Below, piece by piece: positions 18,302-32,841 of a stretch of DNA of 64,000 nucleotides; positions within the stretch are counted from its first letter, which is position 1; each line of letters opens with the position of its first letter. The notes beneath the pieces are model-generated. The model had not been told where the DNA came from. It saw nothing but the letters and a program-made list of their open reading frames with translations, and did not search any database. Source of the DNA: Kondoa subrosea (taxonomy: Eukaryota); contig BCIN01000003.1 of the NCBI GenBank assembly GCA_039545335.1, positions 558,001 to 622,000 of the forward strand, in the 5' to 3' direction. The position numbers and the translations under genes are program-made.

Positions 18302-18377
18302 CAGTGGCCATGCGGCGAGAGTAGTAGCTGTGCAAAGCAGCGCAAAATGTAGAATACACTCCATACAGTCATTAGAG

Positions 18378-19562
18378 AAAGTCAAAACTACTTGTAGCAA
18401 GCGGGAAAGCCAATGATGCTCGAAATGAAGGTTGTTTATTGCAACACAGAGGATTAATCACACACGATAAAAGTTTCTATAATGAAAGCCAACACAACAA
18501 CAAAATACTTTAATGCGAAAAGAGCATGATGCTTCCAAAATGTTTAAGTGAGATCAATGACCGTGTCCACCTCCACCACTGCTCGACTCCTTCTCGTTTA
18601 ATAACGCAACCTCTGTTGTAACAAATCAGAATTTCGTTCAATCAGAAAACAGTCAAGAAGAAAAACGCACGATCGACGAATGACCAACTGTCCGCTTCTT
18701 TGTTGTGCACAGCGGTGAGTCTTTGAATTTCCGCAGCGAAATCTTCGAAGACAGTCTAAAATAGGGAGAGGAGTCAGCAAGACAGCTTTGCATTACAGTA
18801 CTTCGACTCACGTTCTTCTTGCCCTTTTCTCTGCGACCGAGGTTAGCCAACCATGGAATAGCGTTGAGGATAGTGTAGATCTGAGGATGAAGTCAGCTCT
18901 GTTTCAGGCAAGAACGGAAAGACAACTCACCAAAGCGCAAATAACAACGACACCGAACGAGTAGATCCAGATTCTCACGACGGTGACAATATCAGTCCAG
19001 CCTCCACGTGGTGCAGTAAGTTCATTGCGTTGTGGTGTGCCAGCGAGCCATCCGAACAAGGTGAAGATGGAAGCGAGAATATCGACACCAAGAATGGCAC
19101 CTGCCGATGAGGAGTTAATATAGTACTAAAAGCGCTCTCAAGATGACGTACCAGTCAATTGCCAAGATGGTAATGTTCCTCCACCACGAGTAACAAAGAT
19201 CAACCAGTTCTCAGTAAGGGCGACTTCCAAGAACAAGATCGATTGGACGTTGCCGAAGTTCTGGACAACACCGTGACCGCCCTGTTTCTCGACGCGTTAG
19301 CACACAACGAGAACTAATCAAGAGAATCAACGTACGAAGATGATACCTTTGGCGTAACCTTGCTCATCGCCGACGAAGAGAGTACCACGCAAGATCCAGG
19401 TTCCCATAGCGAGCAAAACACCCATGATAGAGGAGATAATCCAGACTTAAGGAAGAAGACTCATTAGCGGTGCTCGATGGAAGGCCGAAAACAGAGACTC
19501 ACTCTTAGGTTGTTGCCATTCGACAGGTTGTTTGGCGACGGGAGCGTTATCGTAAGCCTATT
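18378..19562 (-). repeat. Left arm of ~1.2-kb inverted repeat (PMA1 3' exons, introns and 3'UTR)
   Basis: Reverse complement aligns colinearly with 31245-32428. Confidence 0.95.
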
Positions 19563-22500
19563 AAGTCGAGTGAGCAGAGGTGCCATTGTAAGCTCTGCAA
19601 CTGTTGAGCTTACAATGGCAATTGTTGCCACATCGGCGAAGATAGCCAAGAAGACAATCAAGTCGACTCGGATAACTTCGTTGAGGATGAGGATCGACAA
19701 GGTCAAGTAGATTTCCAAGTGCAAGCACAGAGCGATACGGTATTCGATGTAAGCTAGAGAGGAGGATTGAGCAAGAGTCGATTTCAAAAACAGATAGAGC
19801 TCACCCTTCATTCTGTGGAAAATTTCACGAGATACTTTGATGGAAGTAATGATGGTAGATAGACCTTCGTCAAGGAAGACGACATCGGCAGCAGCACGAG
19901 CAGCGTCAGTGGCACCCTAAACAGAACAAATCAGTGAAAACTAAATCCCCAAGATAAAGAAGCTCACTTCGACGGCAATACCGCAATCAGCTCGCTTGAG
20001 TGAAGGAGCATCGTTGGTACCATCACCAGTCATGGCGACTAAGTGATGACGGTCTTGCAAGAGTTCGACGACTTGGTACTTGTGTTCAGGGTAAACTTCA
20101 CCGAAACCATCGGCAGCTTCAACGAAATCGTGAATGGTGGAACCAGACATGCCGTCGCCTCCGGAAATGAGCTTCTGCGAATCGTAGACTTTGGTACCGA
20201 CACCGAGTTGCTTGCAAGTTTCGATAGCGATGGCTACAGCGTCACCGGTTAACATCTTGACCTTGATTCCCAAAACACCGGCTTCACGGATGGTGGAAGC
20301 AGTGTCCCCACGAGGAGGGTCGAACATAGGCAAGAGACCAAGAAGCTTCCATTTGCCATCTTCGTTTAGAGCAACACCCAAAGATCTGAAACCTCGCTTG
20401 GCGAAAGTCATAGTGCGAGCACGGTAAGAGTCGGCTTCTTCCTTTGGAGGTTGGCAAAGCTTGAGAATAGCGTTTGGTGCACCCTTGGCAGCGATGTATT
20501 GTTTACCGTTCTTTGTGACTTCAGCAGTGATACGCTTGGAGACAGGGTCGAAAGGAGTGAACTTTTGAGTTGTCCAGCCTTCACGGAGATGATCTTGAGC
20601 TCGTGGGTACTTGGCAAGAGTTTGGATAGTGACTTTGTCGATAGGATCAAGAGATTTGACAGAGTGGGATGAAGCCAATGCAGCAACCGCCATCATCCAT
20701 TCCATCTCAACACCTTCACACACATATGGTTCGTCAATAGAAAGCTTGTTTGCTGTGAGTGTTCCTGTCTTGTCTGAGCAAAGAATGTCGACACCGGCCA
20801 AAGCTTCAATGGCGGTAAGCTTTTGAACAATAGCTTGTCTTTTTGCAAGGTAAGCAGCTCCGACGGCGAGAGTGGTAGTAGTGACGCAAGGAAGACCGAC
20901 TGGTACACCGATGATCAAGAAGATAAGAGAGTAGACGAGCAAGTTGTTATCTTTAGGTCTGGTAATGCCAACTGATCTGAAGAAACCACCGATCCAGACG
21001 ATGAGGAGCCATACAACGACGAAGACCAGAAGAGCTGTTCCGATTTGAGTCATGACAATTTGGAAATGACCCTTTCGGTTTTCGCCAGAAACGAGAGCTG
21101 CAGTTTTACCGACGAAAGTAGATTTTGCGGTTTCGGTGACCAACATGTAACATTCACCTCGCTTGCAACCGGTAGTGAAGAAGAGGACATCGCCAACGTG
21201 CTTGTCAACAGCGAGAGATTCACCTGAAAGTACGTATTGAGATTAGATTGCGCAAGAGTCAAAGGTATGAGAACTCACCAGTGATACCAGATTGATCAGC
21301 TGACACAATTGGTGGCCCTCTGTCAACTCCTTCTTCATCGTGATCTTCCTTTTCGTTGTCTGCCATGGCGGCCTTTCGGCGAGCGTTTTCAATACCTTGC
21401 AAGATGCGACGAGCAGCAGATCCATCCTTGTCTTCGTAGTCGGCAAGGACTTTGCCATCAGCTGGAATAGTTTGACCGTCCTGAAGAGAGGAAAAATTAG
21501 AATAGGTACGGATGAACCTTGAAAGCAAAGAAACTAACAGAGACGATGACAATATCACCTGGCACAATTTCTCGTGCTTCCATTTCATGCTCTTGACCAT
21601 TTCTGATGACTGTTGCTCTGAGCGCGATACCAGACTTGAGTTGTTCTACGATATCTCCAGCAGCCTTTTCTTGATACCAACCGACGAAGGCGTTCTATGA
21701 CTCGGCATAAAAGGCTGTACGAGTATGCAGTGCACGGACAGCGCTTACAAGGAATAGAATACCAATAATCACACCGAAATCTGAGGTGGACAAGAAAAGA
21801 ATAAGCAAGAAGATCTCGACATTTCTATTTTTAGAGGACTGACCAATCCAATCTTCCAAACCTGCAGCCAGTACTACTGCAATTTCCATGACGTATAGAA
21901 TAGGACCCTGCAGAGTTGAGAAACAGGAGGTCAGAAAAGCAGCATTCGAAAGAGCAAGAAAACATACAGTGAAGAAGGAAAGGAACTTGACAAACATGTT
22001 TTCCCTCTTTGATTCGAGCTCGTTCCAGCCTGCAAGAGCTCTCCTCTTTTTGACTTCTTCTTCCGAAAGACCCCTTCTCATGTCAGTATCGAGCCTTTGT
22101 ATAATGGAGTAAGCATGTTTCATGTTAAACAAACAAACAAAATGCACTCACCATGATTCCGGAGTCTTGAAGGCAGATGAGGCAGCGACAACGTTGCCAT
22201 CCTTGTCGATGGTAACTTTGTTTTTCTTCCAAGGCATGTACCAGACTCTTTTGTATTCAGTCTTGTTTCCACCTTCTTCTTCATCGCCACCACCTGAGCG
22301 GCGAGCGTTGGCAGAATCTTGAATGTATTGAAGAAGGTTGGAGTATTCTTGGTTGCCAGCATCGGGAGCAGACTCATGTTTGCCGTAATCTCCGTTGTGA
22401 GCGGTGCCAGCTCGGGTCTCGTCTGATGAAGGATGTGAGCGATCAGAAGAGGAAGAATGGACTGGTGCTGCTTTTTCTTCAAATTCAGGTAAACGCGGTG

Positions 22501-22636
22501 CAGCTTGACGAGTGGCAACTTGAGGTTGAGCCACTATGTGTTGAGGCGTTCCATGGATATTCTGGTGAGCAACGTTGCCTTGGGAGACGAATTCGTCACC
22601 AACGACGTTGTTGTGAGGTTGATAGCCTTGAGACAT
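18554..22636 (-). CDS. PMA1: Plasma-membrane H+-ATPase (P3A), full-length copy
   Basis: [25 protein letters not shown] phosphorylation site, [34 protein letters not shown]; spliced C-terminus ...[22 protein letters not shown]. Confidence 0.97.
19581..19620. repeat. Perfect 15-bp inverted repeat with 10-nt spacer spanning a PMA1 5' splice site
   Basis: tgccattgtaagctc-tgcaactgtt-gagcttacaatggca; arms are exact reverse complements. Confidence 0.95.
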
Positions 22637-27355: not shown

Positions 27356-30300
27356 ATGCCGCTGCTTAAGGGAAACGATGCAGTCTGTAAGCAGCATCGA
27401 GCTAGTACAGGGCCGGAGCTCACAGACTATCAGTGCGACATGCCACAGAGCAATCTTCTGCACTCTTTGTGTTTGATGGATTCTCATCTCAAGTTGGCTC
27501 GCTACCCAAATCTACAAGTCATTTCAAGATCGAAACTCGATCTGGTTCATCCGCAGCTGTTCTTGGCTACATTCGATCTTTGGGCGGAAAATCATCTGCC
27601 GATGTCAAGCCAATCACTATTCTCTGCACGCCTACTTCTCTCATCGAGTTGACCGCTGTCTTATCAGCTGCTCTGCCTAATGCATCTGCAAGGCCACCTC
27701 TAGTCATTCAAGTTGCTTGCTGTGAACCTGCAATCGAAAGCAAGAGAGAAGATGAATTGCCTTCTCTGCAGCGTTTGCCTGCTGTTGCTTCTCTATTAGC
27801 AGCCTTGCCTTGCTCAAAAGTTTCAGGCAAAAACAACTTTACTCCAACGGTGATTCTGTCCGGTGGATCTGGTGAAGGTGTTCAAGAGATTGCAGATGGT
27901 CTAAAAGCGGTTGAGCATCTGGTCGCCAAAGGATCGGACGTCATTCATGCTTGGGAAGCTGTTGTAGCAGGACAAGAGTTGTCATCGTCTTTGGCTTCAG
28001 CCGAATCATCTGGAATGGAAGTTGAATACTCAAGCAATGAGGAAAGGAAGCCTCTATCTGAAAGCGATGTCAAGTCCATCTTGAACACCGACTTTTTCAG
28101 CTACCACGGACCAGCAAATCCAAACAAGGCCATCGTTTTACCTTCTTCCCTTCACTCAGCAAACGCTTTAGCTGCTTTATCCGCTGCTACCTCTACTGGT
28201 CTAATCATTGCTCGAGTATTACGACCCTGGTCTTCTGAACAACTTAACGCCGCTATTCCAGCCTCAGCCAAAGAAGTTCATGTACTTGAAGGTTCTTTCA
28301 ACGGCAAAGCCTTCTACTTTGACGTCCTAACTGCTATCCAAGAAGGCACCACTCCTCGCCGAGTCAAGCTCCTCACTTTACCAGCTGATGAAGTTTGGAC
28401 TGTGGCCGATTGGAACCAACGTTTCGCTCGATGGGATTCTGGTGAAGCTAAACCTGCTCCTCCTGCTCCCCTTTTATCGAGCAACAGCAAGTTGGCCGTC
28501 TTTTGGTCACCTGATGAAGGCAAAACAGCTGGTTTGGCTGATCGATTAGCTGCTCAATTCACCAATCAAGGTGGAGTTGAGACAAGGTTGTTGAATGAAT
28601 ACGACAACTTCTCTGGCAAAGAAGGTGGCTTGCAAAGGTCTACTCTGTTGCTGTCGCCTGCCGATGCAGAGAAGAAAGGTGTTCAGCATTCACTCAGTGC
28701 TTTGGTGGAAACCTCTTCTCCTGGTTTGCTCTTCCTTTCTGGACCGCCTTCCATTCTTGCTGCATACAGTCCTTTGGTTACCATTGATATCAACACTCAA
28801 GTCATTTTCTCCAATTCTTCTTGGACTCCAGAAGAATATGGCGAAAAACTCAATGCTGCGGATAAATCCACTTTGATCGCTCGATCTGGTGAAGGCAAGC
28901 TTTGGACTCTGGATGTCGCTTCAGTTGTTTCCGCTTCTGGTCTACTGGCAAGTGATGCACTGGTCGAAGAAGCTGCTTTCTTCCTTCTCTACTACAACTC
29001 TTTGCCAGCTGAAGAAGCTACTTCAACCATTGCCAAATTATTGACTCTTTCCCCTGCTGGCGGAGAATGGTCAGAAGAAGCTTTCAAAGGTTTGGTAGAA
29101 CATACGAGAAACGCTTTGAAACAAATAAAGATGGTTCCCTACGAAGGTGAAGGTCAACCAGCAGCTGCAGCAGAAGTAGACACTGCTTCGCCCGAATCAA
29201 TCAATATCTTGCCTACTCATATCCTTGGCAATGCTATCGGTCCAAACAAGAAAAAGTCTTTCCCTGATGCTGAGCCTACTGCACCACCTGCTTGGCATAT
29301 CGCTGCTAAACAACTTCTCTTCTCTGAAGCTTACGCAACTCAAGTAGATGCCACTCGTCCAGATTTGCCGGAAGAGAACTTCGTCCTCACTGTCACCGAG
29401 AACCGTCGTCTAACTCCATTAGATTACGATCGCAATGTCTTCCACCTTGAACTTTCTACCAAAGGAACAGGACTGAAATACGCTGTTGGTGAAGCTCTTG
29501 GTGTTCATGGTTTCAATGATGAGACCGAAGTAAAAGAGTTCATCGAATGGTACGGTTTGGATCCCGATGCAGTGGTCACTTTGCCCGACAGAGAACATCC
29601 TCATCTCAAATCGGAAGCAAGAACCGTTTTCCAAATCTTCCAGCAGAATTTGGATATCTTTGGTAAACCTGGCAAAGCTTTCTACGAGGCTTTGTCGAAA
29701 GTAGCGACCAACAGAGAAGAGTCAAGACATTTGAGATTCATTGGTTCAGCTGAAGGAAGTGCCACATTCAAAAAATGGTCCGATGTTGACACCGTCACCT
29801 ATGTCGATGTTCTAAAAGCTTTCCCAAGCACAAAAGCCAAACTTGGTTTGAGTGGTCTGTTGAGAGAAGTACCGATGATCAAACCTCGCCATTACTCTAT
29901 TGCAAGCAGTCAGAACTTTGTTGGCGATAGTGTGCATTTATTGGTGGTTACCGTTGACTGGATGACTCCTTCAGGTAAGGCTTGCGCTTGCTTTGGGACT
30001 TATATGTCAAGCGGCTAACGGCATTACAGAGGTCACACGATTCGGTCAATGTACTCGCTATTTAGCAAAACTAAATATTGGCGACAAAGTTATGGTTTCC
30101 GTCAAACCTTCCGTTATGAAGCTTCCACCTCGCGATACTCAGCCAGTCATTATGGCTGGTCTTGGTACAGGGTACGTCTTCCTTCTTTAATCAGTCTAAG
30201 CACACTGCTAACTTTGATCGCAGGGCTGCACCTTTCCGTGCTTTCATCCAAGAAAGAGAATGGCAGCGGAACCAGGGCAAAGAGATCGGTCCTTTGCTTT

Positions 30301-30898
30301 ACTATTTCGGATCTCGATATTCGGGAAAAGAGTACTTGTATGGGTGGGTCTCAAATATCAAATAGCCGAGAATCTTGCTCACTTTTGGTGCAGAGAGGAA
30401 ATCGAAGCCTGGTTGCAAGATGGTATTCTCACACATGCTGGTCTTGCTTTCTCGCGAGACACAAACAAGAAGGTGTTACATTTCTCATCGACTGTAAATC
30501 GGCGTTCATCATGAATTATGCAGGTCTATATCCAGAATAAGATGCAAGAGGACGGTAAGCTCCTCGCAGACATGATGGACGATGGTGCTTTCTACCTTTG
30601 CGGTCGTAAGTTCCGTTCTGCAGTCTACACTAATCTAGCTGATCTTGCACGCAAAGCAACATGGCCAGTTCCGGGGAGGTCTCCCTCAAAAAGTGCTGCG
30701 CGTCCGTTCTGACCTTTGTGTGCCCTAACAGATGTCTACAACGCATTACACGATTCACTCAAAAAGCATCGCGGCAAATCGGATGAAGAGGCTAAGGATG
30801 CTATTGAGCAATGGAAGGAGGACGAGCGCTACATCTTAGAGGGTATGTTTAACCCGCTACAAGTGTCACACATTCTAATGCGTTATACAGTATATTAG
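27356..30898 (+). CDS. MET10: Sulfite reductase (NADPH) flavoprotein alpha subunit
   Basis: PFOR-like N-terminal region (FSYHGP, RVLRPWS), ENRRLTPLDYDRNVFH, KPRHYSIASS, MAGLGTGAAPFRAF, YFGSR, AFSRD, FYLCG, C-terminal EVY*. Confidence 0.94.
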
Positions 30899-31244
30899 GC
30901 GAATTGTACTTGTTTTCGGTTGATAGACATGTGGTACTTTATTATGCGTACATTGAATGCTCACTGTGGCGCCTGTATCTCTCCGTGAGTTACCAGCTCT
31001 GTGTCGTTCGAGCTGTCCTTCTTTGTTTGCTCCGATAAGGTCATCATCCGGCCGAGACTTCAGTCTAGGCGCATAGCCATGATGAATGCAAGGCTAGCCG
31101 GTATTGTAGAAGATTTGCCTTGTTTTGTTGATTCTTGTTCTTCATTCAAATTGTCCGCTTGACTTGATTCTCTTCTTGGCTATCTCCATTGAACACAAGC
31201 TTCTCCCCTTTCTTCCCCTCCATCGACTTCTAGTGGCCAATCGG

Positions 31245-32428
31245 ATAGACCTGCGATAACGCTCCTGTCGCCAACAATCTGTCGAATGGCAACAACCTAA
31301 GTGAGTCTCTGTTTTCGGCCTTTCGTCGAGCATTGCTGATGAGTCTTCTCCTTCAAGTTTGGATTATTTCCTCTATCATGGGTGTTCTGCTCGCTATGGG
31401 AACCTGGATCTTGCGTGGTACTCTCTTCGTCGGCGATGAGCAAGGTTATGCCAAAGGTATCATCTTCGTACGTCGATTCTCTGCAAAGAGCTCGCTTTGT
31501 GCTAATGTGTCGAGTATAGGGTGGTCACGGTGTTGTCCAAAACTTCGGCAACGTTCAATCGATCTTGTTCTTGGAAGTCGCCCTCACTGAGAACTGGTTG
31601 ATCTTCGTTACTCGTGGTGGAGGAACATTACCATCTTGGCAATTGACTGGTACGTCACCTTAAGCGCGTTTTTAGTATCAAAGTAACCCCTCAGCTGCAG
31701 GTGCCATTCTTGGTGTCGATATTCTCGCTTCTATCTTCACCTTGTTCGGATGGCTCGCTGGCACACCACAACGCAATGAAATTACTGCACCACGGGGAGG
31801 CTGGACTGACATTGTCACCGTCGTGAGAATCTGGATCTACTCGTTCGGTGTTGTTGTCATTTGCGCTTTGGTGAGTTTCCTTTCCGTTTTTTCTTTCCAT
31901 TCATCAAGGCTGACTTCATCCTCAGATCTACACTATTCTCAACGCTATTGCATGGTTGGCTAATCTCGGTCGCAGAGAAAAGGGCAAGAAGAACACCGTC
32001 TTCGAAGACTGTACGTTTTTGATGCTCAGATGTGCTGTTTCTATCCTGATTAATATTATCTTTGATAGTCGCTGCGGAGATTCAACGTCTCACTGCTGTG
32101 CACAACAAAGAAGCGGACAGTTGGTCATTCGTCGATCGTGCGGTTTTCTTCTCCACTGTTTTCCGATTGACCGAAATTCTGATTTGCTACAACAGAGGTT
32201 GCGTTATTAAACGAGAAGGAGTCGAGCAGCGGTGAAGGTGGACACGGTCATTGATCTCACTTAAACGTGTTGGGAGCATTAAGCTCTTTTCGCATTAAAG
32301 TATTTTGTTGTTATGTTGGCTTTCATTATAGAAACTTTTATCGTGTGTAATTAATCCTCTGTGTTGCAATAAACAACCTTCATTTCGAGCATCATTGGTT
32401 TTGCCACTTATTCAAAATAGCTTTGACT
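31245..32428 (+). repeat. Right arm of inverted repeat: duplicated PMA1 3' end including 3'UTR with AATAAA
   Basis: Colinear inverted match to 18378-19562, exons highly similar, introns more diverged. Confidence 0.95.
31249..32254 (+). other. Headless PMA1 3' module (last transmembrane helices plus C-terminal tail); intact reading frame, no 5' half in cis
   Basis: Spliced [20 protein letters not shown]...[14 protein letters not shown]...[11 protein letters not shown]...GEGGHGH*; all GT-AG sites retained; upstream DNA is the MET10 3' region, not ATPase sequence. Confidence 0.85.
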
Positions 32429-32841
32429 ATCTTTGAAGCAGGGGTTAGCGTTGAGCATCACATGAACTAAAGAATTGGATCAAACATAGTGGATCTGGAT
32501 TTCGCGATGAATTCCGAGCAAGTGAATAGAACGGATGCATGCGACCACGGCAAGCACAGGGAATGATGACACCGCATCCCATTCAATGAGATGTTCGACA
32601 GAAAGAAGGAAAGCATGAGGAAAAGAAAAAGATACTTGTATATGAGAATGCAAACTTCCATGCTAAATAGAACATCTCTAAAGGCGTTTACTTCCTGTTC
32701 CAGGGGCTGTACCAAACCCTTTCCAAAAATCGTTCTAGCTCAGCCAGGATCTTTCACAAATAAGAAGAGGAGATGAAGGGAAAATGTAGCAAATTCGTCG
32801 TTTTCATGATTTCGTTTGCTCCGGAAACGCCGCAATGGTCT

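Follow-up and report, generated by a model that had tools for sequence, protein, structure and literature searches.

How can two copies of one coding sequence carry an intron at positions only 16 nt apart and still encode the same protein? Movement of an intron over a few bases is constantly invoked when gene structures are compared and is almost never documented, and most near-miss intron pairs are too old for replacement to be separated from sliding. The question is raised here by a full-length fungal gene for the plasma-membrane H+-ATPase PMA1 and by an inverted copy of its 3′ end, both located in the 64-kb stretch of DNA that was analysed (hereafter, the window).

A full-length PMA1 gene and an inverted copy of its 3′ end

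The full-length gene, which contains many short introns, was located by tblastn and Pfam searches at positions 18554–22636 on the reverse strand. The tblastn alignment of P0002 begins at 22636, and the TGA stop codon occupies 18556–18554. A 433-aa exon carries the Pfam domains E1-E2_ATPase and Hydrolase and is 96–97% identical to P0001 and P0002, while its best named matches (76–77%) are to Cystobasidium, Malassezia and smut-like yeasts, which points to a basidiomycete source. The presence of P-type ATPase domains together with high full-length identity to PMA1 proteins identifies this left gene as PMA1. An ordinary intron of this gene measures 50–58 nt, and comparison with P0001 and P0002 also reveals an exon of only 33 nt (11 residues).

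Repeat finding across the whole 64-kb window returned four inverted pairs only and no direct families. In blastn, the four pairs merge into one alignment of 1203 columns at 88.5% identity, which joins 19561–18376 (reverse strand) in the left gene to 31245–32432 (forward strand) on the right. The right copy is 1.19 kb long and lies ~12–13 kb from the left PMA1 gene in the opposite orientation. By blastn and alignment it comprises a partial exon, five whole exons, six introns and a stop codon at 32252–32254, followed by a 3′UTR of ~180 nt, and the AATAAA signal is common to both copies. The first-pass annotation had spoken of two near-identical PMA1 copies. However, the right element is a 3′ fragment that extends over no more than the final four membrane helices and the tail of PMA1 (which, from Pma1 topology, we take to be helices 7–10 and the regulatory tail), and it is therefore not a PMA1 gene.

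Immediately upstream of the fragment, a decayed stub of the preceding PMA1 exon (the membrane helix 6 region) and its intron is recognizable by blastn at 31125–31244 on the forward strand, with the donor site lost. It matches the left PMA1 gene at 67% over 198 columns (E = 8e-16). Aligned globally, its 120 nt agree with the left gene at 86 positions and mismatch at 28, and a further 31 columns are taken up by 14 gap runs. In the alignment, the first partial exon of the right copy (31255–31300, forward strand) has one 1-nt and one 2-nt deletion, which together restore the frame and reduce 10 residues to 9. A 4-codon upstream ORF (ATG GCA ACA ACC TAA) in the same interval stops exactly at the donor. 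The frame of the fragment is shut upstream by a TAG at 31246–31248, and its first in-frame ATG is found in exon 2 (SSIMGV). No upstream coding exon was found in the frames read by eye; both a fusion with the flavoprotein gene described below and an upstream start exon were rejected, each frame running into a stop. Origin as a retrocopy was likewise rejected, as all six introns are retained and the 3′ boundary has no poly(A). A search for tail-only proteins elsewhere yielded 277 matches to the last 197 aa of P0002, which turned out to be ordinary PMA1 last-exon ORFs or partial contigs and are thus uninformative about an independent tail gene.

The unrelated gene upstream of the right fragment encodes a flavoprotein of the sulfite-reductase/CPR type (27406–30898, forward strand; Pfam FAD_binding_1, E = 1e-55). 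Its end at 30898, read by eye with a predicted last splice, lies 347 nt ahead of the fragment. The same by-eye reading gives this gene an apparent 8-nt terminal coding exon (..G / TA TAT TAG, within 30840–30898, forward strand), preceded by a short GTATGT...ACAG intron. Between the inverted repeats at 18376–19561 and 31245–32432 lies a segment of 11.7 kb, which contains PMA1 apart from its 3′ quarter, along with the genes for a semialdehyde dehydrogenase and for the flavoprotein. If the two repeats recombined, the PMA1 body would be coupled with the other tail; given a neutral divergence of 10–26%, we judge this too rare to matter. Flip-flop inversion or frequent conversion between the repeats was considered as a cause of the fragment's conservation and was rejected by the same reasoning, because repeats whose introns and UTR have diverged to this extent would exchange far too rarely to police a detached copy.

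Two intron positions separated by 16 nt

In the left gene, a 56-nt phase-0 intron (intron A; 18756–18811, reverse strand; GTGAGT...CTGAC...TTTTAG) lies between KKN and TVFEDF. In the right fragment, a 58-nt phase-1 intron (intron B; 32011–32068, forward strand; GTACGT...CTGAT...GATAG) splits the Phe codon after TVFED. With slashes marking the splice sites, the left copy reads AAG AAG AAC / GTGAGT...TTTTAG / ACT GTC TTC GAA GAT TTC GCT and the right copy reads AAG AAG AAC ACC GTC TTC GAA GAC T / GTACGT...GATAG / TC GCT. The 16 nt between the two sites are found 3′ of intron A on the left (ACT GTC TTC GAA GAT T; 18740–18755, reverse strand) and 5′ of intron B on the right (ACC GTC TTC GAA GAC T; 31995–32010, forward strand). 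These two pieces are identical at 14 of 16 positions and bring the blocks to 72 nt (intron A) and 74 nt (intron B) in total. Each copy is uninterrupted at the intron site of the other, and a 22-residue stretch of the spliced protein around the two sites, which are 16 nt apart, is the same in both.

Branch motifs are present 17–18 nt ahead of the acceptor in both introns (CTGAC in A, CTGAT in B), and the donor hexamers GTGAGT and GTACGT are those of neighbouring introns in the same gene. The boundaries proposed for A and B are the only ones that restore the conserved protein, because the mRNAs of relatives read through the site: L001, L002, L003 and L004 all encode KKNTVFEDF or KKETLFEDF without interruption. 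On direct reading, everything that the first-pass annotation had stated about the position, length, phase and 16-nt displacement of the two introns is correct, as is the identity of KKNTVFEDF across the site in both copies. Thus, the occurrence of two intron positions 16 nt apart with a conserved protein is confirmed.

In the right copy, the V-F-E-D codons form a perfect 12-nt palindrome, GTCTTCGAAGAC (31998–32009, forward strand), which is imperfect by one base in the left copy (18741–18752, reverse strand) and in the mRNAs of relatives. The intron sites flank this palindrome, one falling 3 nt before it and the other 1 nt after it. The palindrome prompted the idea that the whole block had been inverted; this was rejected, since intron A does not resemble the reverse complement of intron B (P = 0.54) and an inversion would break the frame.

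Selection on the right fragment

The coding sequences of the two copies were compared using Nei-Gojobori counts over the interval that begins with exon 2 and ends at the stop codon. Over these 206 codons there are 21 synonymous and 4 non-synonymous differences, with three amino-acid differences, corresponding to a dS of 0.162, a dN of 0.0085 and a dN/dS of 0.052 (left versus right). If the right copy were neutral and only the left one constrained, four or fewer non-synonymous differences would arise with P = 2e-11. The 41 codons downstream of intron B conserve their frame when taken alone (P = 0.017), and because they do, the frame under selection is the one that depends on the proposed splice of intron B. 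Indels give a similar picture, with none in 619 nt of exon compared to 14 gap runs in the 120-nt stub directly upstream. The alignment therefore carries the mark of selection on both copies.

These results indicate that the right fragment is under strong purifying selection and has very probably been spliced and translated. The earlier suggestion that the right copy had been expressed is borne out to this extent, given a dN/dS of 0.05 and a conserved frame behind intron B, and both splice patterns have very probably been used. Conserved exons beside a decayed stub speak against both an artefact of assembly or haplotypes and a recent truncation of the gene; they suggest that the tail fragment has functioned independently ever since it was duplicated. 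It may represent a new gene for a small membrane protein of ~206 codons, counted from the first in-frame ATG.

At 31932–31940 (forward strand), the right copy has Ala where all relatives, near and distant, have Pro (NAIPW / RIPY / KVPY motif). This NAIPW to NAIAW replacement is the only clearly right-derived amino-acid change.

Introns A and B are not related

An intron with relocated ends would be the same intron in both copies, and the neighbouring introns provide controls for this comparison. The whole exons are 96–97% identical between left and right (106/110, 125/130, 164/170 and 58/60), introns 1–4 and 6 are 88, 74, 78, 76 and 90% identical, respectively, and the 3′UTR is 90% identical. 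The five control intron pairs have local alignment scores of 39–86, which none of 500 dinucleotide shuffles reached. For introns A and B, the local score is 10, below the mean of 13.0 for shuffled sequences (P = 0.99), and their global alignment is no better than that of shuffled sequences either (P = 0.45). Because all neighbouring introns can still be aligned, this absence of homology is informative. The first-pass annotation had offered intron sliding as one of its readings, and this reading fares badly in its strict form: A and B are not one intron with moved ends, since they are unrelated while the five neighbouring pairs align, and the 16-nt distance is not a multiple of three.

A resemblance had also been reported between the start of the left intron and the end of the right exon with its donor. 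This 13-column match, TCGAAG(T)ACTGTA, is real and is the highest-scoring local one, although marginal when it is allowed to fall anywhere in the block (P = 0.039). Restricting the comparison to the corresponding 25 nt gives P = 0.0017, with an anchoring that was chosen after the match had been seen; in this post hoc test, similarity to the right exon end and its donor extends over the first 18 nt of intron A. For the proposal that the old end of the exon became intronic and was re-created downstream, there is thus one 13-column match that is significant only in the post hoc anchored test, whereas the rest of intron A shows no homology to support it.

Several other possible traces of origin were sought. 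No trace of the 16-mer is present at the 3′ end of intron B (P = 0.71), and neither intron resembles its own flanking exons (P = 0.25–0.99). The proto-splice site AG/GY is absent at both positions, which read AAC/ACT and ACT/TCG. For intron gain by tandem duplication, which calls for a proto-splice site and similarity to the intron's own exon, there is only the short 5′ match. TRF detects no tandem array and no 16-mer copies in intron A, and the 64-kb window contains neither further copies of intron A or B nor a donor sequence for either of them. RNA structure bridging the splice sites was not found in the left (z = +1.53) or right (z = −0.67) copy. At the reciprocal donor position there is no GT in either copy; a GTAATG does occur 15 nt into intron A, without a matching acceptor. 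A target-site-duplication model, with a shared core and a 16-nt repeat on each side, was rejected: no relationship exists between the cores, and the 16-mer has no counterpart at the 3′ end of intron B.

Relatives and the direction of change

A metagenome scan yielded L001–L005 as uninterrupted mRNAs of relatives; among its matches, close relatives occur as spliced mRNA only, with no genomic DNA. To catch unspliced gene calls on genomic contigs of relatives, the left ORF extending from exon 5 into intron A was used as a protein query; it returned 1 candidate, and none scored. L001–L005 and P0121 represent at least four lineages of PMA1 mRNA that are distinct but closely related, with 80–93% identity in the tail, and that come from a few environmental transcript sets. 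They may be separate species or paralogues within one species, which bears on the idea of a third paralogue. Among distant relatives, the intron position before the two sites is also occupied in the genomic contig L006 (59% identical), which runs through both sites without a break. The fungal genomic ORFs P0122 and P0124, from contigs of 45.7 kb and 73 kb, respectively, are also uninterrupted there. Because these three sequences have neither intron, neither position is both old and widely fixed.

Differences between the two copies were polarised with three outgroup mRNAs, which are only 78–79.5% identical in nucleotides, so that the polarisation is noisy. Of 23 sites, 9 were assigned as left-derived, 5 as right-derived and 9 as ambiguous; overall, the right copy is not the faster-evolving one. 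Six of the 25 exon differences fall within 45 nt after site A. This clustering has P = 0.0035 in a fixed-window binomial test and is not significant when all windows are scanned (permutation P = 0.30). Within these 45 nt, the left codons GAT, AGA and ACC differ from two or three of the three outgroups, which match the right copy, and GAG is the sole right-derived state; the AGA/CGT codon (left/right) differs at two bases. The pattern hints that a patch around the intron of the left gene is foreign or newly made in origin.

Discussion

The two introns form a near intron pair, being 16 nt apart between exons that are 96–97% identical, with one intron in each copy. We tentatively favour intron turnover at this pair, with replacement in the full-length left gene rather than sliding. 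According to this reading, a 1.3-kb piece of the PMA1 3′ end would have been duplicated and inverted ~12 kb away, after which the first ~120 nt of the duplicate decayed and the remainder was kept by purifying selection. At some time following the duplication, one copy, more likely the left gene, would have swapped its intron. The left gene would have lost the older phase-1 intron, which the right fragment retains, and acquired an unrelated 56-nt phase-0 intron 16 nt upstream, so that the 16 coding bases that once preceded the intron now follow it. One event of recombination or repair may have replaced roughly 70–120 nt of the left gene in this way, drawing on another, hypothetical PMA-type gene, on cDNA, or on fill-in during break repair.

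PMA1 is normally essential, and in a single essential gene no series of viable steps leads to a 16-nt shift. A single event would best explain a change in the left gene because of this essentiality and because every half-way state is frame-shifted. For the same reason, stepwise intronisation followed by re-creation of the 16 bases was rejected, all its intermediates being frame-shifted and lethal for the sole copy of an essential pump. Replacement of the left intron in one step, whose donor is hypothetical, needs only one event and agrees with the hints from the substitution cluster and the 5′ match; it is on these grounds that we infer both which copy changed and that it did so at once. A more detailed version of this reading appears unlikely as a whole. 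It holds that the relocation in the left PMA1 gene has been caught near the event, with the first 18 nt of the new phase-0 intron consisting of the intronised old exon end and old donor, with a fresh 16-nt copy behind, and with the ancestral state preserved in a selected tail-only paralogue, a new gene of helices 7–10 plus regulatory tail.

The unrelatedness of A and B would be explained directly if a 16-nt micro-exon had lain between both introns in the ancestor, with subsequent loss of the downstream intron from the left copy and of the upstream one from the right copy. This reciprocal loss, which the first-pass annotation had already named beside sliding, we regard as possible but somewhat doubtful. 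Both introns are of ordinary length for the gene (50–58 nt), and very short exons are tolerated, as illustrated by the 33-nt exon of the left PMA1. However, two independent and precise losses of adjacent introns would be needed within a dS of 0.16, each ending within the 16-nt exon and yet sparing introns 69 nt away. Microhomology that could favour precise genomic deletion is absent from the ends of either intron, and the 13-column match (P = 0.0017 to 0.039) and the left-derived cluster would be left to chance. In the Drosophila survey by Lehmann (2010, PMC2891723), moreover, the coexistence of introns so close together is judged very unlikely. The change might instead have taken place in the right fragment, which would then have exchanged an ancestral phase-0 intron for the phase-1 intron. 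As the fragment is probably not essential, non-functional intermediates would be tolerable there, and the right copy is indeed altered at the conserved proline (NAIPW to NAIAW). We nevertheless consider this quite unlikely: near the site, the synonymous states of the right copy fit the outgroups better than those of the left, the 3′ end of intron B bears no trace of the 16-mer (P = 0.71), and the right copy is not faster overall (5 right-derived versus 9 left-derived sites).

The absence of both introns from distant fungi is what would be seen if the ancestor was intronless at this site and an intron was then gained separately by each copy beside the 12-nt palindrome, which is perfect, lies between the two sites and could be a hotspot for breaks. 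Parallel gains within 15 nt are described for fungi with introner-like elements (Collemare 2015, PMC4457414). But two rare gains would be required within a dS of 0.16, no second copy of either intron is found in the 64-kb window, and the AG/GY proto-splice site is missing at both positions; we therefore hold two independent gains to be improbable. Still lower in probability is an explanation by artefact or a dead copy, in which the right element would be an assembly chimera, or a pseudogene with an 'intron' that was never spliced. Such an origin would fit a fragment that lacks an evident upstream coding exon and whose frame is closed by the TAG at 31246–31248. It is very hard to reconcile with a dN/dS of 0.05 and with 206 codons free of indels and stops adjoining a heavily decayed stub, and the stub and the unique flanks on both sides oppose a haplotype or chimera. 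Finally, the same intron may have had both splice sites moved by 16 nt. The nearly equal block lengths (72 versus 74 nt) and the 13-column match near the 5′ end recommend this strict sliding, but it is largely refuted by the unrelatedness of A and B beside five neighbouring pairs that align, and we consider it barely credible. In addition, the 16 coding bases reappear on the other side as a copy (14/16) and have not been re-coded, 16 is not a multiple of three, and cryptic splice sites are absent from the reciprocal positions.

Comparison with known systems

Classical intron sliding, a notion associated with Stoltzfus (1997) and Rogozin (2000), is reported to keep the intron while its flanks are re-coded, mostly over 1 nt or multiples of three. 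The PMA1 pair resembles it in having nearby, non-identical intron positions in homologous genes. It differs in that the intron sequence has been replaced and the 16 coding bases have been kept as a copy on the other side.

Near intron pairs, defined as positions <32 nt apart in homologous coding sequence, have been surveyed in Drosophila (Lehmann 2010, PMC2891723). This survey attributes 31 pairs to sliding (9) or tandem duplication (5) or leaves them unexplained (17); one pair in its table is 16 nt apart, and most pairs show no similarity between their introns. Like the Drosophila pairs, the PMA1 pair has one intron per gene and a conserved protein. In contrast to the pairs described there, it compares a gene with its own partial paralogue in one genome, at a dS of 0.16 and with neighbouring introns that can still be aligned, and it belongs to a fungus with introns of 50–58 nt. 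That survey treats similarity between the introns as sufficient for sliding and an AG/GY proto-splice site as the criterion for tandem duplication; the PMA1 pair has neither.

Among fungi, a survey of 28,256 introns in four Cryptococcus species reports no clear sliding and only five intronisations (Roy 2009, PMC2740785). These species are, like the source of the PMA1 pair, basidiomycetes with dense short introns, and against that survey the PMA1 case would be exceptional either in its kind or in its rate. Cases in Dothideomycetes that looked like sliding within 15 nt have been reinterpreted as parallel gain of introner-like elements (Collemare 2015, PMC4457414). The PMA1 pair may likewise have a new intron near a position occupied elsewhere, which mimics sliding; however, introner-like elements are described there as multi-copy and long, whereas introns A and B are single within the 64-kb window. 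Stwintrons are reported to provide a fungal route for an intron shift through nested introns that leaves the protein unchanged (PMC5587772). That shift covers a single nucleotide, and in contrast to it, the PMA1 pair shows nothing nested.

Near intron pairs are therefore already known as a class. What is unusual here is the youth of the pair, its internal controls, and a selected tail-only paralogue that keeps the alternative state. Because the five flanking intron pairs act as built-in controls at a dS of 0.16, sequence alone suffices to distinguish replacement from sliding. Also unexpected is a tail-only fragment of a proton pump that is kept under strong purifying selection beside its own decayed stub.
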